Below are positions 3,211-20,193 of a DNA stretch of 64,000 bases, piece after piece; position 1 is the first letter of the stretch; every line of letters begins with the position of its first letter. The stretch comes from Candidatus Daviesbacteria bacterium. GTDB taxonomy: Bacteria; Patescibacteriota; Microgenomatia; Daviesbacterales; UBA10151. Under the pieces are notes generated by a model. That model was not told the DNA's origin, did not search any database, and worked only from the letters and a program-made list of their open reading frames with translations. Location: assembly GCA_016184225.1 (NCBI GenBank), contig JACPDA010000004.1, positions 208,372-272,371 of the forward strand. Reading direction: 5' to 3'. The position numbers and the translations under genes are program-made.

Positions 3211-4005
3211 ATGTCAGCTGAAGCACCAAAAGTACAAGATGCAGATGTTAGAAGAGCAGCAAGGTCACGTTTGCAACCGGAAGGGAATTGGATGGGACGG
3301 GCTTATTCACTCAATAGAATTTTTGATGGTCTCAATTCACGTCTTGATAATGGTGATATTGATGGGTTTTTAAGATTAAATAAGTTAGCTGTTCACAGAA
3401 TTACTTCATACTGGCTGCCTATTGCCAAATTTTTTATCATGGCTAAAACACCATGGTACCTTATAGAACCACGTATACTTTATTCCAGTTATTCTTATCG
3501 AGATCGAGATGGTAAGGTGGATCTTTCTTGTATGACTGCTCGTTCAACTGATAGGCAAGCAGGAAGCAAATTTATGAGGCGGGTTATTACAGATGACGGG
3601 TTGCAGGAGGACAACTGTAGAATTAAGACTTGGGTAGAAGAGGGTGGTCAACTTTACAACCCAGAAACTTGGCTTGTGATGGATATAGAACAGAGATGTA
3701 CAATTCCTCCAGACAGCTATGGTTTTTTTATTGGCATTAATAACTACAAAGGAGGGTTATTACAGGAAATAGTTAGAACACCGGGTCTGAAAGGATGGGA
3801 TTTGGTAACAGCATTAGGGATCTTCAGAGGGGAATTATCACCAGAGAAACTAGTAAGAATACCGCCTCCGGTAGAAGGAATTAGGGTGGTGGGAGCTGGT
3901 GTTTATGGCTCTGGCGAACCAAATGAGGTACATCAAAAAGGACTCAGAGATGGTATGTATCTAATACCTAGAGAACAATTTTCCCAATATTTCCCTCCTG
4001 CTTGA
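3211..4005 (+). CDS. Hypothetical protein (264 aa, Trp-rich, no recognised domain) occupying the usual rbfA/truB slot
   Basis: Long ORF with its own promoter; GLNSRLDNGDIDG segment loosely resembles a pol-beta NTase G-x9-DxD motif (weak). Confidence 0.5.
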   Translation: MSAEAPKVQDADVRRAARSRLQPEGNWMGRAYSLNRIFDGLNSRLDNGDIDGFLRLNKLAVHRITSYWLPIAKFFIMAKTPWYLIEPRILYSSYSYRDRDGKVDLSCMTARSTDRQAGSKFMRRVITDDGLQEDNCRIKTWVEEGGQLYNPETWLVMDIEQRCTIPPDSYGFFIGINNYKGGLLQEIVRTPGLKGWDLVTALGIFRGELSPEKLVRIPPPVEGIRVVGAGVYGSGEPNEVHQKGLRDGMYLIPREQFSQYFPPA

Positions 4006-4042: not shown

Positions 4043-5053
4043 ATGAAATACGATTCACAGCTTGCGGAACTTAAAAATCTTTTACCTTCTGCTAAAAACA
4101 TTTTAATCGCCATTCCGACCGGTGCTGATGTAGACAAACTGGCAGCCGGGTTGGCTTTATTTTTAGCCTTTGAGGTAGCTGGTAAGCAGGTTAGTATAGT
4201 CTCTGATGATGCGATGCTGGTTTCCCACACCCATCTTTTTGGAGTGGACCATGTTCAAAAAACCCTTCCTTCCACCGATGGTGGAAACTTAACTTTAACT
4301 TTGGAAGGGGTGGCTGCATCTGACGGGACAGTGCCGGCTTTGGAAAAGCTGGATTGGTTTGCGGAAAACAATAATTTAAACCTGGTCTTTCATGTCTTAC
4401 CTAACCAAACATTCCAACCGGCCCGCATAATCCCCCGCTACCAGGGTTCCGGATTTAACTTAATCTTTACGGTGGGGGCAGCTAATTTGAACGCATTGGG
4501 AAGTATTTATTCAGCCAACAGCCAAGCTTTTTCCGGCACCCATATTGTTAATATAGATATTCAGTCTGCTAATACCAGTTTTGGCCAGACTAATGTTTTA
4601 GATGCCCAAGCTTCTTCTTTATCAGAGGTGGTCAGTTTGGTTATTACGGATCTGGGTTTTATTCTAGATTCAGACAGCGCCAGCAATATCCTGGCCGGGA
4701 TTTTTGATGCCACTAATAATTTATTTGATCCTAAAGTGACGGCTGATACTTATGTGGCAGTAGCTAATTGTCTCCGGGTGGGAGGCAAAAAGCCATCCTC
4801 TGTTCAGGCTGCGGAGGTTATGCCGCAAAGTCCGCAGCATGTGATAACTCAAGCTCAACCGGCTTATGACTGGAATGCTGTTTCTGCGGCCATTGGCCAA
4901 AATGTGCCTCCGAAATATACTGTGCCTCCGGTTGTAGTTTCTGACTCCCAACCTTCACCGGAAGAGCGACCGCTTGAAGAAGGTGTAGTTTCCGAGACAG
5001 TTGAACCGGAATGGCTGACCCCCAAAATCTTCAAAGGCACTTCACTAGGATAA
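4043..5053 (+). CDS. DHH/DHHA1-like (NrnA/CnpB-like) phosphoesterase domain protein with divergent catalytic motifs
   Basis: N-terminal ILIAIPTGADVDKLAAGLAL resembles DHH motif I (DxD) region, VDHVQ in place of DHH, VGGKK in place of GGGH; nrnA-like genes are known to neighbour rbfA in other bacteria. Confidence 0.4.
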   Translation: MKYDSQLAELKNLLPSAKNILIAIPTGADVDKLAAGLALFLAFEVAGKQVSIVSDDAMLVSHTHLFGVDHVQKTLPSTDGGNLTLTLEGVAASDGTVPALEKLDWFAENNNLNLVFHVLPNQTFQPARIIPRYQGSGFNLIFTVGAANLNALGSIYSANSQAFSGTHIVNIDIQSANTSFGQTNVLDAQASSLSEVVSLVITDLGFILDSDSASNILAGIFDATNNLFDPKVTADTYVAVANCLRVGGKKPSSVQAAEVMPQSPQHVITQAQPAYDWNAVSAAIGQNVPPKYTVPPVVVSDSQPSPEERPLEEGVVSETVEPEWLTPKIFKGTSLG

Positions 5054-5676: not shown

Positions 5677-8043
5677 ATGCATAAAGTTATTACCAAAGAA
5701 ATCGACCTTAATGGTCGAAAACTAAAATTAGAAACAGGTAAACTGGCTCTGCAAGCAGATGCATCTGTGGTGGTTTCATGGGGAGAAACAGTCATTTTAG
5801 CAACTGTGGCCACGCAACCTTTGGCTGAAGATATTGGTTATTTTCCTCTTTCTGTAGAATATGTGGAAAAACACTATGCCGGCGGCCGAATCTCCTCTTC
5901 CAGGTTTATCAAAAGAGAAACTAAACCGACAGATGAGGCTGTGTTAACCGGTAGGTTAATCGACCGCTCCATTCGTCCCCTTTTCCCCAAAGAGTTTAAA
6001 AATAACGAAGTGCAGGTGATTCTAACGGTTTTATCTGTTGATCAGGCTAATGATCCGGATATTGTCGGTTTAATCGGGGCTTCAACTGCACTGTCTATTT
6101 CATCTGTGCCTTGGGACGGGCCGATTGCCGGAGTGCGGGTAGGAGAAAAAGAAGGGAAACTGATGGTCAACCCCACCATGGAAGAGATGGAGAAATTGAA
6201 TATGGATCTTTTGGTAGCGTGCGGTAGCGAAAAAGTAGTCATGATAGAAACTGCCAGTAAGCAAGTTGACGAAAAAATAGTCTTTGCCGGAATTAAAGAA
6301 GCCCACACCGCAGTAGCGCCAATAATTGTTTTAATAGAGGAATTCGTTAAAGAAGCCGGTAAAGAAAAATTGCCCATTTCCCATTTGGCTGAGGAGATAG
6401 AGGAAGCTTTAATTTCCGAGGTGACAAAAATTACCAAAGAAAGAATTGAAGCAGCGCTTTTTGATAATGAGCATCCCTGGCATGAAGCCACCGGCGAGAG
6501 AATCAAGAAAGAACTGGTTCTTCAGTATGCAGAAACTTTAACCCCCCAAATCATTGCCGGAATTTTTGATAAAGTGGCTAAAGAAATTGTGCATGAGAGT
6601 GTTCTTGAGAAAGGTAAAAGGGTGGATGGCCGGGGCATGGATGAGATCAGGCCGCTTCAGATGGAAGTAGGAATTTTGCCTAGGACACACGGCAGCGCCC
6701 TATTTAACCGCGGGGATACGCAGGTTCTATCTGTCGTTACTTTAGGTGCTCCTTCCTTGAAGCAAACTCTGGACGGCATGGAAGGGGAGAGGGAAAAAAG
6801 GTTTATGCATCACTACAACATGGGTATTAATCCTTTTTCCGTGGGAGAAGTTAAAAGATTAGGTCCGCCCAACAGACGTGATATCGGTCACGGAGCGTTA
6901 GCTGAAAAAGCTATTTCCGCAGTTGTTCCTTCTGAAGAGAGTTTTCCTTATGCCATCAGAGTCGTATCTGAAGTCTTAGCAGCTAATGCTTCTACTTCAA
7001 TGGCTTCTGTTTGTGCTACTACTTTAGCCCTTCTAAATGCCGGAGTTCCACTTTTTGAGCCGGTGGCAGGTATTGCTTTGGGACTATTTTCAAATAAGAA
7101 AAAATTCCAGGTAGTGGCTGACATGAGGGCGGTTGAGGATTTTTATGGTGAGATGGATTTTAAGGTGGCCGGAACTAAAAACGGTATTACCGCTATCCAA
7201 ATGGATACCAAGCTTTCAGGACTCTCTTTTGAAATTATCGAGACTGCTTTGGAGATGGGGAAAAAAGCCAGACTGGAAATTTTGGAAAAGATGGCAACAG
7301 TTATGCCCAATGTCGGCCCTCTTTCACCATATGCTCCCAGAGTGGAAACATTGCATATTAAACCGGAAGAGATCGGGCTTTTGATCGGGCCGGGCGGCAA
7401 GAATATTAATGCCATTATCGGAAGAACCGGGGCCCAAATTGATATTGAAGATGACGGGACAGTGATGGTGTCCGGAACAGATTCCAGTGGGGTAGATAAA
7501 GCCATTGCGGAAATCGAAGGCATGTTTAAAACCGTTAATGTCGGGGATGAGTTCACCGGAAAAGTGGTCAGACTCGTACCTTTCGGGGCTTTTGTGGAGA
7601 TTGCTCCTGGTAAAGACGGATTAGTTCATATTTCCCAAATGGCACCGGGCCATGTGGAGCAGGCAGAAGATGTGGTGTCTGAAGGACAAGAAGTGAAAGT
7701 TCGGGTAACCGATGTTTCACCTGATGGAAAAGTCGGATTATCAATGCTTTTTGGGGCGGATATTAAGCCTGAATCAGAAGGACGTCCTTCTGGTGGAGGC
7801 TTCAGGCCAAGAAGCGGGGGATTTAGGCCAAGACCTTCTTTTGGGGATAGACCCAGATCATCAAGTGGTGGCTATAGATCAGGTGGATTTGGCGGAGAAA
7901 GAAGCAGTGGTCCAAGACGCCCCTTTGGAGACAGACCACGAAGTGGTGGTTTTGACAGAGGTGGATCCGGGAGGTCAGGTGGATTCGACAGAGGCCGTGG
8001 CGGTGGACGAGACCGTGGTGGCCGCGGTGGATTTAACAGATAA
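5677..8043 (+). CDS. pnp: Polynucleotide phosphorylase (PNPase) with about 90-aa RGG/RG-rich C-terminal tail
   Basis: Two RNase PH domains, KH and S1 motifs; tail GGFRPRSGGFRPRP..GRGGGRDRGGRGGFNR; rpsO-pnp synteny. Confidence 0.9.
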   Translation: MHKVITKEIDLNGRKLKLETGKLALQADASVVVSWGETVILATVATQPLAEDIGYFPLSVEYVEKHYAGGRISSSRFIKRETKPTDEAVLTGRLIDRSIRPLFPKEFKNNEVQVILTVLSVDQANDPDIVGLIGASTALSISSVPWDGPIAGVRVGEKEGKLMVNPTMEEMEKLNMDLLVACGSEKVVMIETASKQVDEKIVFAGIKEAHTAVAPIIVLIEEFVKEAGKEKLPISHLAEEIEEALISEVTKITKERIEAALFDNEHPWHEATGERIKKELVLQYAETLTPQIIAGIFDKVAKEIVHESVLEKGKRVDGRGMDEIRPLQMEVGILPRTHGSALFNRGDTQVLSVVTLGAPSLKQTLDGMEGEREKRFMHHYNMGINPFSVGEVKRLGPPNRRDIGHGALAEKAISAVVPSEESFPYAIRVVSEVLAANASTSMASVCATTLALLNAGVPLFEPVAGIALGLFSNKKKFQVVADMRAVEDFYGEMDFKVAGTKNGITAIQMDTKLSGLSFEIIETALEMGKKARLEILEKMATVMPNVGPLSPYAPRVETLHIKPEEIGLLIGPGGKNINAIIGRTGAQIDIEDDGTVMVSGTDSSGVDKAIAEIEGMFKTVNVGDEFTGKVVRLVPFGAFVEIAPGKDGLVHISQMAPGHVEQAEDVVSEGQEVKVRVTDVSPDGKVGLSMLFGADIKPESEGRPSGGGFRPRSGGFRPRPSFGDRPRSSSGGYRSGGFGGERSSGPRRPFGDRPRSGGFDRGGSGRSGGFDRGRGGGRDRGGRGGFNR

Positions 8044-8098
8044 ACTATTGATTATCCTCTTGGGAAATTGTGAGCTATAAGGTAAAATAGGTAGCAGG

Positions 8099-9133
8099 AT
8101 GGATTCTGCCCGGGTCAGTGTTGAACAGTTAAAAATAAAAATTTCTCAAGCGGGTCTTCCCAAAGAAATTGAAGAGAAGCTTCTTAACATTCTGCAATTT
8201 AGTGGTCCGCCAACTGGCGGAGGTGCAGAGCTGGCCAGCTTAATTTCTTATGTGGAATTTGTCCTTGCCCTGCCGTTTAACAAGTATTCCCAGGATATTC
8301 TAGATATCAACCGGACTAAACAAATCCTGGATAAAAACCACTATGGTTTGCAATCAGTTAAAGACCGGATTTTGGAATATTTATCAGTGTTGATTTTACA
8401 CAAACAAAGCGGCCAGGAAAACGACTTTCATGCACCAATACTGGCGTTTATCGGTTTAGTGGGAACCGGTAAAACTTCCCTGGCTTACTCAATAGCAGAA
8501 AGTCTGGGACGGCCACTCATAAGGATTCCCTTTGGCGGCTTGGGAGACCCGGCCAGTTTACGCGGTCAATCCAGGCTTAGACCGGACAGTGAACCAGGGC
8601 AAATCATCAAAGCCATCCAGGCTGCCAAAGTTTCAAGTCCTGTTATACTGTTAGATGAAATAGATAGGGTGGCAGTTGAACATAGGGTGGATATTATGGG
8701 GGTATTGGTAGAGCTTTTAGATCCTGCTCAAAATCAGGCCTTTCTGGATCACTACTTAGATTTCCCATACGACCTATCACAGGTGTTATTTATTGCCACT
8801 GCCAATAATACCGGTAACATTGCCACAGCAGTTTTAGACAGACTTGAGCCAATTGTGATGCCTTCTTACTCAGACGGCGAAAAGCTGGTAATTGGCAGGG
8901 ATTATCTGTTGCCTAAAACTTTGAAAGAATCAGGTGTTGATCCAGGCTCATTGACTATTGATCAGACAACCTGGCCTCAGATTCTGCGGCCTTTAGGCTT
9001 TGATTCAGGAATTAGGTCCCTGTCACGTTCATTACAAACTATTTGCAGAAAAGTGGCCAGGAAAAAAGTGGAAGGAGAAGTCGGGCCATTTAGGATTACA
9101 GGCGAGAACCTAGGAGAGTACTTGGGAGGATGA
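8099..9133 (+). CDS. Lon-family AAA+ ATPase module only (no N-terminal LAN domain, no protease domain)
   Basis: Collinear with Lon residues about 230-600: DKNHYGL..VKDRILEYL, Walker A GLVGTGKTS, Walker B ILLDEID, sensor region ..LLDRLE..; ORF ends where the Lon protease domain would begin. Confidence 0.7.
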   Translation: MDSARVSVEQLKIKISQAGLPKEIEEKLLNILQFSGPPTGGGAELASLISYVEFVLALPFNKYSQDILDINRTKQILDKNHYGLQSVKDRILEYLSVLILHKQSGQENDFHAPILAFIGLVGTGKTSLAYSIAESLGRPLIRIPFGGLGDPASLRGQSRLRPDSEPGQIIKAIQAAKVSSPVILLDEIDRVAVEHRVDIMGVLVELLDPAQNQAFLDHYLDFPYDLSQVLFIATANNTGNIATAVLDRLEPIVMPSYSDGEKLVIGRDYLLPKTLKESGVDPGSLTIDQTTWPQILRPLGFDSGIRSLSRSLQTICRKVARKKVEGEVGPFRITGENLGEYLGG

Positions 9134-9216
9134 GATAAGGGATATTGGGATATAAAGATATTACGAGAAAAACCACTTAATATCCTAGTATCATAATATC
9201 CTATCTCGATTCATTT

Positions 9217-10935
9217 ATGAAAACGTTTAGACCTCAATTTTTGAATACACAAAATAAGACAAGCTTGACGCTTCGCGATAATAATCAACCACTGAGGATT
9301 ATTCCCTTAGGTGGTGTTGGTGATGTGACCAAAAACATGTATGTTTATGAGTGCGGCAATGACATCATTATTGTCGATTGCGGCGTGGGATTTCCTGATG
9401 ATGCTATGCCGGGCGTAGATTTGGTGATTCCGGATATTTCATACCTTAGGGATAAGATAAATAGGATCAGAGGAATTATTATTACCCATGGTCATGAGGA
9501 TCATATCGGCAGCTTGCCTTATATTTGGCCGGAGATTCAAGCTCCGATCTATACCCAAAGGTTAACAGCTGGATTTATCCGTGCCAAATTCACCGAACAC
9601 AATTTACCTAAGGAGAAAATTGTTGAAATGAAAATCGACCAAAAGTTAGATTTGGGTAATTTTAAAGTCTCTTTTTATCAAGTATCCCATTCAGTACCGG
9701 ACTCTACAGGAATAGTTATTAAGACGCCTCAGGGGACAATTATCCATCAGGCAGATTTTAAGATTGACTGGACACCAGTCTCCGGTCAGGTAACTGACGT
9801 AGGGACAGTGGCGAGGCTCGGCAGCGAGGGCGTACGGTTGCTTTTAATTGATTGTTTGCGGGTTGATAAGCCGGGTTTCAATAAGTCGGAAAAATCTATT
9901 GAGGATTCTTTTGAAAAAGCTGCACTGGAGACTCCGGGGAAACTTTTGATTACCATGACTTCATCGAATGTCTCCCGGATGCAGCAGGCGATTAATGTGG
10001 CAGCGAAACTGAATAGGAAAGTAGCAGTGGTGGGCCGTTCTTTTGAGAACAATTTTCAAGTGGCCAGGGATTTGGGATATTTATCAGTTCCGCCAGCGGT
10101 TATGATAGCTCCTGATGTAATTTCCTCATTTGCCCCTCAAAAACTTATGGTTTTAATTGCCGGGGCCCAGGGACAATCTGACTCATCTCTAGTAAGGGCA
10201 GCCAACGAGGAACACAAGCAAGTAATTTTAAAAGAGGGCGATAGTGTGGTATTTTCTGCTGACCCCATTCCTTCCACCGAATCTGCCCAAAGCGCCCTGA
10301 TTGATTCGCTCTCAAGACTGGGACTAAATGTTTACTATTCGGCTGTAACTTCTGATTTACATGTTTCCGGCCATGCGGCATTGGAGGAACTGCGGCTGAT
10401 GATCAATCTAATAAAACCGAAATCTTTATTCCCAATCGGTGGGACTTTTAGACATATGGAGGCTTTTTCTAAAATGGCTGTGGATATGGGTTATGATAAA
10501 AAACAACTTCTGGAAGCAGAAGATGGAGATATTTTAGAGATAAAGGGTGAAGACATAAAAATAACCGGTAAAGTTGATGTACAAAATGTCTATGTGGACG
10601 GCTTGGGGATTGGGGATATCGGGCATGTGGTCTTGCGGGACAGACAAAAAATGAGCGAAGAAGGAGTGGTAGTTGTGGTGGTATCAGTAGATCAGCATAC
10701 CGGTAAGTTGGTCTCGGAAGTGGATATTATTTCAAGGGGATTTGTATTTGAAGAGATGGCTAAAGAGCTGCTTTCTGAAGCAAAAACTGTAGTTAAGGAT
10801 GCTTTGCAAAAACACACCCACAAAACAGCCGACTGGCGCTTTATCAGGAGAATAATCGAAGATGCCTTGGATAAATTTTTCCATCAGGCCACTGAAAGAA
10901 GACCGTTAATACTATCGGTTGTAGTGGAGGTTTAA
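9217..10935 (+). CDS. rnj: Ribonuclease J (metallo-beta-lactamase / beta-CASP)
   Basis: HGHEDHIG motif, beta-CASP region, about 570 aa. Confidence 0.85.
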   Translation: MKTFRPQFLNTQNKTSLTLRDNNQPLRIIPLGGVGDVTKNMYVYECGNDIIIVDCGVGFPDDAMPGVDLVIPDISYLRDKINRIRGIIITHGHEDHIGSLPYIWPEIQAPIYTQRLTAGFIRAKFTEHNLPKEKIVEMKIDQKLDLGNFKVSFYQVSHSVPDSTGIVIKTPQGTIIHQADFKIDWTPVSGQVTDVGTVARLGSEGVRLLLIDCLRVDKPGFNKSEKSIEDSFEKAALETPGKLLITMTSSNVSRMQQAINVAAKLNRKVAVVGRSFENNFQVARDLGYLSVPPAVMIAPDVISSFAPQKLMVLIAGAQGQSDSSLVRAANEEHKQVILKEGDSVVFSADPIPSTESAQSALIDSLSRLGLNVYYSAVTSDLHVSGHAALEELRLMINLIKPKSLFPIGGTFRHMEAFSKMAVDMGYDKKQLLEAEDGDILEIKGEDIKITGKVDVQNVYVDGLGIGDIGHVVLRDRQKMSEEGVVVVVVSVDQHTGKLVSEVDIISRGFVFEEMAKELLSEAKTVVKDALQKHTHKTADWRFIRRIIEDALDKFFHQATERRPLILSVVVEV

Positions 10936-17371: not shown

Positions 17372-19567
17372 ATGAGCTTCCTTGATAAAATAACAGCCTT
17401 TTTACCGTTTCGGGAAAGGCAAGAAAGTAAAGAATATTTTTTTGCCACAAACATCGGTACTGAAAATCTCACGGCAGCTTTGTGGGGTATCGAAGGTAAA
17501 GAACTTAAGATTTTATCAATAGCTTCGGAAAATTATTCCTCAAATGACGAGATTGTTGCGGTTACAGATAAGCTCTTGGATCAAGTTTTAGGTTTAAAAG
17601 AGATCGAACCCCAAAAAATCCTTTTTGGGGTGCCTGCTTCCTGGCTAATAGATGACAATTTAAAAGATGAGTACTTAAAAATACTCCGAGTTTTGGTGAA
17701 AGAACTGGAGCTTACTCCGATGGCTTATGTAGCGACCAGTAATGCCATAGCGCATTTTTTGGAAAAACAGGATGGTATTCCCACAACTGCTATTTTGATT
17801 GGGTTTGAGAAACTTCATTTAACAGTTACAGTAGTCAGGGCAGGTAAAATTGATGGGGTAAAGGTTATTAAAAGAGGAGAAACTGCAGGTTCAGATATAG
17901 AAAAAGCACTACTCACATTTATTGATGTTGAAACGTTGCCTTCTAAGATTTTAATTTACGGTACGGCATCTTCCGAATTAAAATCTCAACTATTATCTTT
18001 TCCCTGGATGTCTAAACTATCATTCTTGCACCTGCCAAAGATAGAGGTACTGGAGCAAGACTTGGAAATTAAAAGTATATGCTTGGCCGGAGGATCAGAA
18101 CTTAATCCCGCTATCTCTTTTATAGACCATTCTCAGCAAAGAAAGATAGAAAAAGCAGTAGTTATTGATGAAGAGGATCTAAAAGAGCCAGAAAGTCAGG
18201 TGGTTAGAAAACCAAAGAGTGAAGTTAATTCTGAAAAAGAAAATCTCGGTTTTGTAGTTGGAGACGTAGAAAGTCAGATTAAGTCAGAATACAAAGAAAC
18301 TGATGATTTGCCGGAAGACCTTAAGTTAGAGCAGCCCCAGGAGGAAGAGTTGGCAATCTCCAAAGAGCGCCCTTTAGAGATTGAAGATTTTGAAACAGAT
18401 AAGAAGAATGATTGGAAGCAATTAATTCCCAAAAGCCTTACAACCCCTATTTTACTTTTTGGAATAGTTCTGAGTTTGGCTTTAGTGCTAGGTACTTATA
18501 TTTTGTTGCCTAAGGCAAATGTAAAGATTTTTGTAGAACCAAAGGTGCTGGAGAAAGATGCAGAGGTTATAGCCGACCCTAATCAAAAGGCAGTCGATGA
18601 AGATGCCAAAATCATTCCGGGGCAAACAGTCGAAACAGAGGTGTCAGGTTCTGCCAAAGACAATGCTTCCGGTAAAAGACAAATCGGCGATCCGGCCAAG
18701 GGGACTATTGTAATTTATAATAAAACTCTAAGTCCGCAGGTATTGAGTAAGGGGACTAGTATCAGTAGTGGAGGCATAAAGTTTACCCTGGATACCAGTG
18801 CAACCATAGCTTCGCAGTCAGCTAGCGATAGCGGGATTACTTTTGGCAAAGCAAATACTACAGTTACTGCTGCTTCAATCGGAGCTGACGGAAATTTACC
18901 TTCCGGATCGGATTTTACCATTGCAGGTTATTCATCTGATAAATTAGCTGCTAAATCCGAGGGTAACCTTTCCGGGGGTACATCTAAAGACGTGACTGTT
19001 GTCTCCAGTGAAGATCAACAAAGATTACTTGCTAAATTATCCTCTGACTTGAGACAGCAAGCTCAACAAAAGCTGCAGGAAAAATTCCCCAATAAAAAAA
19101 TCTTGCAGGAAGCGCTCTCAGAACAGGTTACCCGTAAAAGCTATAATAAAAATATTAACGATCAAGCCAGCGAATTCGCCCTCAATATGACTATTCGCTA
19201 TAAAGGCACTGCATTTGAGGATAAAGATCTTAAATTGATTGTCTCCAAGTTAGTCACTACACAGGTTCCAGACGGTTTTCAACTTGATCTTTCAGAGACA
19301 GAAACTCAAGCCGATGTTTCAAAATTGGAAAAAGACGGCAAGTTAATATTTTTGGCAAGATTTAAAGCAAAGATGATACCGCAAGTTGATAAAGATAAAA
19401 TTAGAAATCAGATAAAATTCAAGACTCCAGCTGAGGTGGCAAATCTATTAAAAGGCATGGATAATATTCTAGGTTCTGAAATTAGTTGGACTCCGAAAAT
19501 ACCAAAAGCATTAGAGCGTCTGCCTATTTTATCAAAAAATATCAAAATCGAGGTTGGGCTTAAATGA
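17372..19567 (+). CDS. PilM-like actin-fold domain fused to TM segment and large extracytoplasmic domain (possible type IV pilus PilM-PilN/O fusion)
   Basis: N-terminal 350 aa collinear with PilM/FtsA-like blocks (IGTENLTAAL.., ILFGVPASW, TAILIGFEKLHLTVTVV, KRGETAGSDIEKAL); TM about aa 355-380; Ser/Thr-rich exterior. Confidence 0.45.
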   Translation: MSFLDKITAFLPFRERQESKEYFFATNIGTENLTAALWGIEGKELKILSIASENYSSNDEIVAVTDKLLDQVLGLKEIEPQKILFGVPASWLIDDNLKDEYLKILRVLVKELELTPMAYVATSNAIAHFLEKQDGIPTTAILIGFEKLHLTVTVVRAGKIDGVKVIKRGETAGSDIEKALLTFIDVETLPSKILIYGTASSELKSQLLSFPWMSKLSFLHLPKIEVLEQDLEIKSICLAGGSELNPAISFIDHSQQRKIEKAVVIDEEDLKEPESQVVRKPKSEVNSEKENLGFVVGDVESQIKSEYKETDDLPEDLKLEQPQEEELAISKERPLEIEDFETDKKNDWKQLIPKSLTTPILLFGIVLSLALVLGTYILLPKANVKIFVEPKVLEKDAEVIADPNQKAVDEDAKIIPGQTVETEVSGSAKDNASGKRQIGDPAKGTIVIYNKTLSPQVLSKGTSISSGGIKFTLDTSATIASQSASDSGITFGKANTTVTAASIGADGNLPSGSDFTIAGYSSDKLAAKSEGNLSGGTSKDVTVVSSEDQQRLLAKLSSDLRQQAQQKLQEKFPNKKILQEALSEQVTRKSYNKNINDQASEFALNMTIRYKGTAFEDKDLKLIVSKLVTTQVPDGFQLDLSETETQADVSKLEKDGKLIFLARFKAKMIPQVDKDKIRNQIKFKTPAEVANLLKGMDNILGSEISWTPKIPKALERLPILSKNIKIEVGLK

Positions 19568-20193
19568 GGGTGGCTGCCCTGGGATTTTTATCAATCGGGA
19601 TCATTCTCCTTCTGCAGGTAGTTTTACCGATAGTTTCATTTGAATTGTGGGCTATTGGACAAGAATATAATAACCGGGTTCTGATTAGTCCACACAAGTC
19701 AGGGCAGCAGGTTTTAGGGGTCTCGGTCCAAAATAACAATAATTTCCCTACTTTTATTTCCAATTTAACCAGGCAGTCAAAACCGAACTATAATCAGTTC
19801 TTGCTTTCTGTGCCTAGGCTTAAGCTAGAGGGGAAAGCTGTTTATGTAGATAGTAATGACTTGTCAAAAGGATTGGCTCAGCTTCCCGGCTCTGCCATGC
19901 CCGGAGAAAAGGGGAATGTATTTATTTCAGGACATTCTGCGCTCAGCAAATTTATTGCCGGTGAAACAGCTATTTTTGCAAAGTTAACAGATTTAAAAAA
20001 AGATGATGAGATTTTTGTGGAGGCGGCAGGTAGTCGGTTTGTCTATAGGGTGGTGGGAATTAAAATTGTTGACCCGAGCGATTTGTCCGTTATTCTTGCA
20101 CCTGATGAGCAAGGAAGGTATATTTCTTTAATGACCTGTGTGCCTCCCGGTTTAAACTACAAACGCCTAATTGTTTTGGGAAAAATAATTTAG
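19564..20193 (+). CDS. Sortase-family transpeptidase
   Basis: N-terminal TM, catalytic His in FISGHSA, TLxTC-type Cys in LMTCVPP, downstream conserved Arg. Confidence 0.65.
   Translation: MRVAALGFLSIGIILLLQVVLPIVSFELWAIGQEYNNRVLISPHKSGQQVLGVSVQNNNNFPTFISNLTRQSKPNYNQFLLSVPRLKLEGKAVYVDSNDLSKGLAQLPGSAMPGEKGNVFISGHSALSKFIAGETAIFAKLTDLKKDDEIFVEAAGSRFVYRVVGIKIVDPSDLSVILAPDEQGRYISLMTCVPPGLNYKRLIVLGKII

Follow-up and report, generated by a model that had tools for sequence, protein, structure and literature searches.

A short Lon-derived AAA+ ATPase without a protease domain, and with a remodelled pore loop, is conserved across Microgenomates and Dojkabacteria

Introduction

What does a Lon motor do once the protease that usually follows it is gone? 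The question is raised by a gene at positions 8099..9133 (+ strand) of a 64,000-nucleotide stretch of a Candidatus Daviesbacteria genome (assembly GCA_016184225.1, contig JACPDA010000004.1), hereafter the window. The gene lies between pnp and rnj and encodes a protein of 344 amino acids (aa), which a first-pass annotation made from the sequence alone described as Lon reduced to its AAA+ module: either a neofunctionalised unfoldase or chaperone, or a stable remnant. In published descriptions, Lon itself joins a recognition domain, a AAA+ motor and a protease in a single chain (e.g., PMC9569914). The locus analyzed here belongs to a clade-wide natural truncation of this textbook protease, one that is accompanied by a distinctive rewriting of the pore.

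Results

The open reading frame (ORF) starts with ATG and is complete. In its product, Pfam recognizes a AAA domain (residues 116–253), a Lon-type lid or small alpha subdomain (PF22667, Lon_lid, residues 276–327; 8924..9079, +) and no other domain. The NCBIfam model TIGR00763 ('lon') is matched over positions 254–567 of 795 (E 7e-91), and residues 7–343 align to the solved LonA structures of E. coli, Y. pestis, M. taiwanensis, T. thermophilus and B. subtilis and of human LONP1 (E ~1e-71 to 1e-61); both agree with the earlier description of the ORF as collinear with the central part of Lon. The LonA alignments stop at Lon residue ~580–585, which is the AAA+/protease boundary, and the last residues of the protein (…NLGEYLGG) share homology with the Lon linker, so the protein does end where the protease domain would start. 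At the other end, residues 1–104 (8099..8410, +) form a helical region, delimited by alignment to Lon residues ~245–350, by an AlphaFold2 (AF2) model and by column statistics. It corresponds to the end of the Lon long helix, the three-helix bundle of the N-terminal domain (NTD-3H) and a linker, and contains five helices in the AF2 model. The Lon-type AAA+ module is complete, comprising the three-helix bundle, the large subdomain and the Lon lid, and identity to LonA across these parts is ~40–45%.

The predicted fold is that of LonA. The AF2 monomer model, built from an alignment of 40 sequences that included Dojkabacteria-type proteins, has a mean predicted local distance difference test (pLDDT) score of 83.3 and matches LonA chains in Foldseek with template-modelling (TM) scores of 0.81–0.89; an earlier run with 21 close homologues only reached a pLDDT of 59.5 and was discarded. 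The best two-way structural match is 6n2i, a construct of the E. coli Lon AAA+ module (TM 0.87/0.89 over 338 columns). The boundaries and length of the two are nearly identical, with query residues 1–343 corresponding to residues 4–340 of the 344-aa chain. As a LonA derivative, the 344-aa protein retains two parts, the helical bundle ahead of the AAA domain and the AAA+ module itself.

Unlike LonA (TIGR00763, MEROPS S16), the protein has neither a LAN domain nor an S16 Ser–Lys protease domain. A protease-domain profile built from eight full-length Lons found nothing at E ≤ 1 in six frames of the window, which covers 64 kb of a ~770-kb genome, or within ±6 kb of the gene at 45 loci from related genomes; on control loci the same profile returned E-values of 1e-85 to 1e-95. 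An N-domain profile from the same eight proteins, run without a positive control, likewise gave no match at E ≤ 1, whether in six-frame translation of the window or at the 45 related loci. Taken with a TIGR00763 match that begins only at model position 254, this upholds the first-pass statement that the LAN domain is missing. No upstream extension of the ORF is possible, as the pnp stop lies 55 nt ahead of the start codon. Downstream, rnj begins 83 nt after the ATPase stop, as had been stated, and this spacer (9134..9216) is too small for a protease domain. A protease domain hidden behind a frameshift or sequencing error is ruled out by the six-frame profiles, by the spacer and by independent assemblies that give the same protein; no contiguous protease ORF could be recovered in the six-frame search, and the domain is absent rather than frameshifted, just as had been proposed. 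A protease encoded in the variable gaps beside the gene in other genomes was also considered and rejected: the genes in those gaps encode Bro-N, PsbP-like, Fic, uracil-DNA glycosylase (UDG) or unknown proteins.

The truncated form is neither unique to this genome nor an artefact of it. Three independently assembled read sets agree on the protein sequence and on its neighbours, and an identical (100%) NCBI protein bears the name 'AAA family ATPase'. The 120 closest database proteins are 338–365 aa long, 74–100% identical to the query and composed of AAA and Lon_lid only; a second search, seeded with a Dojkabacteria-type protein, returned 120 proteins of 320–407 aa with the same domains and without Lon_C. 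Among GTDB species representatives, intact homologues of 339–358 aa are found in Daviesbacteria, Amesbacteria, Curtissbacteria, Woesebacteria and Shapirobacteria, and intact Dojkabacteria-type homologues measure 376–436 aa. The matches measured in ordinary bacteria are full-length Lon, 778–844 aa. The conservation of the truncated form, which the first-pass annotation had singled out for checking, thus holds for almost 300 related proteins from Dojkabacteria and the Microgenomates group, all about 320–410 aa long and devoid of a protease domain.

The frame is intact at all informative loci. Three further candidate-phyla ORFs are shorter solely through a contig end or scaffold gap, and the sole copy that appears broken (L035, Daviesbacteria RIFCSPLOWO2_02_FULL_41_8) has a stretch of N at ~6355–6460, a scaffold gap and not a mutation. 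Nonsynonymous divergence (dN) from the query is 0.10–0.25, with synonymous divergence (dS) saturated; the comparisons that allow dS to be estimated give dN/dS values of 0.03–0.09. The short Lon ATPase is a real gene under strong purifying selection across the Microgenomates group and Dojkabacteria/WS6. In a neighbour-joining tree of the AAA+ module (distance-based, not maximum likelihood; 99 sequences, 293 AAA+ columns), 59 short forms are split from all full-length LonA in 100 of 100 bootstraps, so that the module phylogeny also sets the short forms apart; this single, fully supported split fits a scenario in which the loss happened once, long ago, and the short form was then inherited vertically. 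An all-against-all search of representatives, the top of which consisted mostly of very long, multi-stretch proteins, served mainly to supply divergent short forms and full-length LonA sequences for the tree.

Some members of the family carry long low-complexity extensions, rich in Q/P or S/N and either N- or C-terminal, in which no domain is detectable (P0170, 548 aa; P0142 and P0272, 669 and 703 aa; P0128, 486 aa; P0152, 507 aa). Such extensions may be disordered and serve in tethering or recognition. Those of P0170, P0142 and P0128 were considered as leftovers of a protease or N-domain, and this was rejected, as they are of low complexity and match neither the profiles nor Pfam.

The taxonomic range requires some care. 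Titles in the TPA_asm series of metagenome-assembled genome (MAG) records are unreliable: Daviesbacteria-like contigs, with shared synteny and genes 75–85% identical, are titled 'uncultured Gammaproteobacteria' (among them loci L005, L006, L009, L011, L015, L016, L020 and L021), and Dojkabacteria-like contigs are titled 'uncultured Candidatus Saccharibacteria'. An occurrence in Saccharibacteria was withdrawn because of these titles, all named close relatives of the loci concerned being Dojkabacteria/WS6. The NCBI taxonomy keeps Dojkabacteria outside its 'Patescibacteria group'; their placement within Patescibacteria is that of GTDB.

The ATP site keeps every residue that Lon needs to bind and hydrolyse the nucleotide. 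Residue roles were taken from a cryo-electron microscopy study of Y. pestis Lon (PMC7239648), and alignment columns were compared between 299 short forms and 83 full-length LonA sequences, a redundant sample drawn mostly from two sub-clades, which should be borne in mind for all percentages given here. The Walker A motif GLVGTGKTS (8453..8479, +; LonA GPPGVGKTS) and the Walker B motif ILLDEID (8645..8665, +) were located in the ORF where the first-pass annotation had them. Alignment and column statistics further place sensor-1 at Asn236 (8804..8806, +), the trans-acting Arg finger at Arg248 (8840..8842, +) and sensor-2 at Arg306, inside the lid (9014..9016, +). The equivalents of Lon K362, D423, E424, N473, R484 and R542, which in the query are K125, D186, E187, N236, R248 and R306, are present in 100% of the short forms. 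In the pre-sensor-1 beta-hairpin (PS1-hairpin), Y456 is retained and E458 is replaced by Asp; of the NTD-3H contacts, Lon Y294 corresponds to Y51 and W297 to F54, the latter being Phe or Trp among short forms. An invariant Arg finger that acts in trans argues for function as an oligomer. Judging from these residues, the short form most likely hydrolyses ATP and forms a Lon-like ring, probably a hexamer.

The pore is where the short forms part from Lon. In pore-loop 1 of Lon (RGHRRTYIG), Y398 and I399 grip the translocating polypeptide and R395 and R396 buttress the loop (PMC7239648). The aligned stretch of the query, assigned on the basis of the same study together with alignment and column statistics, is RGQSRLRPDSEPGQ (8561..8602, +), against RGHRRTYIGAMPGR in LonA. 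The first-pass annotation had noticed the alteration of RGHRRTYIGS to RGQSRLRPDS and had called it a change in a sensor motif. The alteration is borne out by the alignments, and the label is not: the motif is pore-loop 1, and the real sensors and the Arg finger are intact. The positions of Y398 and I399 are occupied in the query by R161 and P162. Tyr fills the Y398 column in 99% of the LonA sequences; in the short forms the column holds Arg (39%), Glu (37%), Ser (6%), Lys (5%), His (2%), Ala (2%) or Tyr (1%). R395 is replaced by Ser or Pro, G400 by Asp (92%), M402 by Glu (98%) and R/K405 by Gln (95%), and the short forms share, just after the Y398 column, a fixed acidic signature, D[SA]EPGQIIK, which is new with respect to LonA. 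The fixing of this motif at the base of pore-loop 1 suggests that substrates are contacted differently.

A second stretch, RVAVEHRVDI (8666..8695, +; LonA KMSSD[F/Y/W]RGDP), is what we take, from Lon structures, to be pore-loop 2. By alignment and column statistics, its aromatic residue and RGDP signature are gone and the stretch is variable among short forms, with a 2-residue insertion in Dojkabacteria-type proteins. With neither the pore-loop-1 Tyr nor the pore-loop-2 aromatic conserved, the designation of canonical 'unfoldase' becomes doubtful; going by these columns, the short forms probably do not use canonical aromatic 'hand-over-hand' staircase threading of polypeptides.

These results bear on what the gene should be called. 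The short form misses the curated score for lon (TIGR00763, 305.9 bits against a cut-off of 608.05; NF008053, 244.3 against 891). Of the five LonA features tested, it departs from LonA in four (the protease domain, the N-domain, the score on the curated model and the aromatic of the pore loop), and the protein should therefore not be annotated as a Lon protease. Public annotation is inconsistent on this point, with 'ATP-dependent Lon protease' in use at JGI and 'AAA family ATPase' at NCBI.

Discussion

The reading that we favour, at a probability of roughly 55%, is that the short Lon ATPase works as a non-proteolytic, ATP-driven remodeller or chaperone-like factor, in anti-aggregation or in assembly. 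LonA-derived modules would form a Lon-like, probably hexameric ring and hydrolyse ATP; the ring, lacking a protease domain, would itself degrade nothing; substrates would be contacted through the remodelled acidic pore, the NTD-3H ring, or both; and the work done on them would be analogous to the protease-independent, ATPase-dependent activity of mitochondrial LONP1. According to two reports, the chaperone-like, anti-aggregation role of LONP1 needs ATP hydrolysis and not protease activity, so that a Lon AAA+ ring can have a useful ATP-dependent function other than proteolysis (PMC8368198; PMC7801493). Of the two fates offered by the first-pass annotation, neofunctionalisation is supported by the ~300 homologues, the dN/dS values and the invariant residues; the remnant is not, and the word 'unfoldase' is put in doubt by the pore loops.

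Several observations weigh against this reading. The LONP1 precedent is a full-length Lon, which retains its protease domain and aromatic pore loops and whose chaperone role is additional to a working protease. Ring formation and ATP hydrolysis are things that we infer from residue conservation only. Lon hexamers are held together in part by the ring of protease domains, and a module without that domain might assemble differently. The inter-subunit 'acidic bridge' residue E447 is Ala in Daviesbacteria, and Glu in most other members, which may alter the coupling of subunits in the Daviesbacteria proteins. That the acidic motif sits in the channel is likewise a homology-based placement. Tyr is kept at the pore-loop position at four loci (L020, L028, L030 and L034), where some ability to thread polypeptides could conceivably persist. 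Finally, there is a rather small chance that a partner protease is encoded elsewhere in the ~770-kb genome, beyond the window.

Known systems offer partial parallels. The 6n2i chain is an engineered fragment with wild-type Lon pore loops, unlike the short form, which is a natural, selected, stand-alone gene with remodelled ones. The FtsHi pseudo-proteases of chloroplasts are also descendants of AAA+ proteases that have lost proteolysis and kept an ATPase-dependent function (PMC8197885; PMC10500165); they belong, however, to the FtsH family and the classical clade and keep a degenerate protease domain, whereas in the short Lon form the domain is wholly deleted. ClpX, HslU, RuvB and ClpB-D2, of the HCLR clade (PMC7239648), share the PS1-hairpin and are ring ATPases without a fused protease. 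ClpX and HslU have aromatic pore loops and dock on partner proteases, unlike the short form, which derives from Lon and has an acidic, non-aromatic pore motif. RuvB acts on DNA.

Among the alternatives, we consider it unlikely that the protein is a nucleotide switch, or a regulator that binds DNA or RNA through its lid, and does no mechanical work on proteins. Both pore-loop aromatics are lost, a basic lid helix is retained (…ICRKVARKKVEG), and 6n2i was itself deposited as a 'DNA-binding ATP-dependent protease La', all of which would fit such a role. The retention of the Arg finger, sensor-2, the PS1-hairpin (Y456, E458D) and the NTD-3H contacts (Y294, W297F) tells against it, as these residues point to selection on the inter-subunit mechanochemical apparatus as a whole, beyond what nucleotide binding would call for; a fixed acidic pore motif would, moreover, be unfavourable for nucleic acid in the channel.

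It is quite unlikely, though the architecture might invite the idea, that the short form is one half of a split Lon, its ring docking in trans on a separately encoded S16 protease or on another compartmental protease of the ClpP or HslV kind. The protein ends exactly at the AAA+/protease boundary with a linker-like tail, all ATPase residues are conserved, and the protease search covered 64 kb of the genome. Split genes are usually adjacent, however, and neither the window nor the ±6 kb searched in 45 related genomes yielded a Lon protease domain; the genes in the junction gaps are not proteases; and the aromatics that protease motors need for translocation are not conserved in the pore loops. 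The short forms constitute a single old group that takes in both Microgenomates and Dojkabacteria, so that a protease partner would need to match it in age and in conservation.

The neighbourhood of the gene raises another option, which the first-pass annotation had hinted at in remarking that a position between two RNA-degradation genes might be relevant: that the ring remodels or regulates PNPase and RNase J, for example by engaging the basic tail of PNPase through the acidic pore. Upstream lies pnp (5677..8043, +), identified by Pfam and synteny and encoding a 788-aa PNPase (two RNase_PH domains, KH and S1); downstream is rnj (9217..10935, +), encoding a 572-aa RNase J that Pfam resolves into metallo-beta-lactamase, beta-CASP and RNase J C-terminal domains. 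The order pnp–ATPase–rnj is kept across Daviesbacteria, Amesbacteria, Woesebacteria and Shapirobacteria. In ~9 other Daviesbacteria genomes the end of the ATPase gene runs 4 nt into the start of rnj, and in the window no terminator-like site was found on the + strand between pnp, the ATPase gene and rnj; with the overlap seen elsewhere and no + strand terminator in the 83-nt spacer, co-transcription of the ATPase gene and rnj is plausible. A promoter scan gave sites no more numerous than in shuffled sequence. Daviesbacteria also combine a conserved RG-rich PNPase tail with the acidic pore motif.

The same neighbourhood nonetheless makes an accessory role in RNA decay quite improbable, about on a par with a docking protease. 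The three genes are part of a generic supra-operon, collinear in Microgenomates, that runs nusA–infB–two Pfam-less ORFs–rpsO–pnp–(ATPase)–rnj–ftsK–tsaC (Sua5/YrdC)–a HTH_25 protein gene–alaS, and adjacency within such a block is little informative. Unrelated genes have been inserted at both junctions in several genomes; rnj is missing from this site in Curtissbacteria-type loci; and in Dojkabacteria-type loci the neighbours are wholly different (a class-V, cysteine desulfurase-like aminotransferase, dCTP deaminase, a TraG/VirB4-like ATPase, DHH, TsaE and a sigma factor). Outside Daviesbacteria the RG tail is weak or absent even though the ATPase is present. Adjacency here is lineage-specific synteny within a housekeeping supra-operon, and as such weak evidence for a role in RNA decay. 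Of the earlier remark, then, the position holds, within Microgenomates only, and its relevance to RNA is doubtful.

A bolder proposal, more doubtful still, is that the class of substrate has switched. The acidic, non-aromatic pore (D-S/A-E-P-G-Q) would on this proposal engage basic disordered segments, and the short form would serve as an ATP-driven organiser or recycler of the machinery of RNA degradation in Microgenomates; its targets may include the Arg/Gly-rich tail of PNPase and ribosomal or RNA-binding proteins. If true, this would represent both a new mode of substrate engagement for a HCLR-clade AAA+ motor and a new bacterial degradosome component, in organisms with minimal proteostasis networks. 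Hardly any credence attaches to a decaying lon remnant or an assembly or frameshift artefact, for which a sub-threshold curated score and a changed key Lon motif could be cited, since identical independent assemblies, ~300 intact homologues, a dN/dS of 0.03–0.09, catalytic residues conserved at 100%, an altered pore region that is itself invariant (D[SA]EPGQIIK), a single 'broken' copy explained by a scaffold gap and a full-length rnj only 83 nt downstream all argue otherwise. An anti-phage defence ATPase was rejected as well, PADLOC giving only weak, partial, generic-AAA matches (best E 3e-6, 24.6 bits, DolB/IetA) for a gene in a housekeeping operon context.

Returning to the favoured remodeller, the wider interest of the family lies in what has been kept and what has been replaced. 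A whole radiation of ultra-small, genome-reduced bacteria possesses only the motor of Lon, under strong selection, and so constitutes a natural experiment on a proteolysis-free ring. An invariant ATP site, including an Arg finger that acts in trans, together with a fixed acidic motif in place of aromatic pore loops, is unusual for a lineage of AAA+ unfoldases, and it poses a testable question: whether the short-form motor still threads polypeptides or works in another way. A literature search of incomplete coverage, which leaves an earlier description possible, found no account of a protease-less Lon in candidate-phyla bacteria. Proteolytic capacity would be overstated in metabolic and proteostasis reconstructions of candidate phyla that count short forms among the Lon proteases. 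The family may also be of practical value in structural studies, as a source of Lon AAA+ modules that are stable by nature.

Other features of the window

The junctions on either side of the ATPase gene, pnp/ATPase and ATPase/rnj, are hot spots of variable insertions of 0.8–5 kb (L004, 4384–6001; L009, 3188–6001; L012, 1054–5989; L022, 7047–8928; L023, 7023–8328). The inserted genes encode a Bro-N domain protein, a PsbP-like protein, Fic/DOC, UDG and unknowns.

The PNPase of the window carries an Arg/Gly-rich, low-complexity tail after its S1 domain (7753–8040, the C-terminal ~95 aa: …GGFDRGRGGGRDRGGRGGFNR). Arg and Gly make up 57% of its last 90 residues, and the tail is RGG-box-like; it is conserved across Daviesbacteria, including the terminal GGRDRGGRGGFNR, and is weak or absent in other Microgenomates. 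An alternative-frame ORF of 122 aa (7712–8080, +) within the same region is most likely a by-product of biased codon composition and not a gene.

Two ORFs without a Pfam match lie between infB and rpsO, at 3211–4005 (264 aa) and 4043–5053 (336 aa); the position of the second is conserved across Microgenomates, with 25–82% identity. In many bacteria this interval is occupied by rbfA and truB. Further downstream, a 731-aa ORF with no Pfam match (17372–19567) overlaps by 4 nt the sortase gene that follows it (19564–20193), and may encode a sortase substrate or surface protein.

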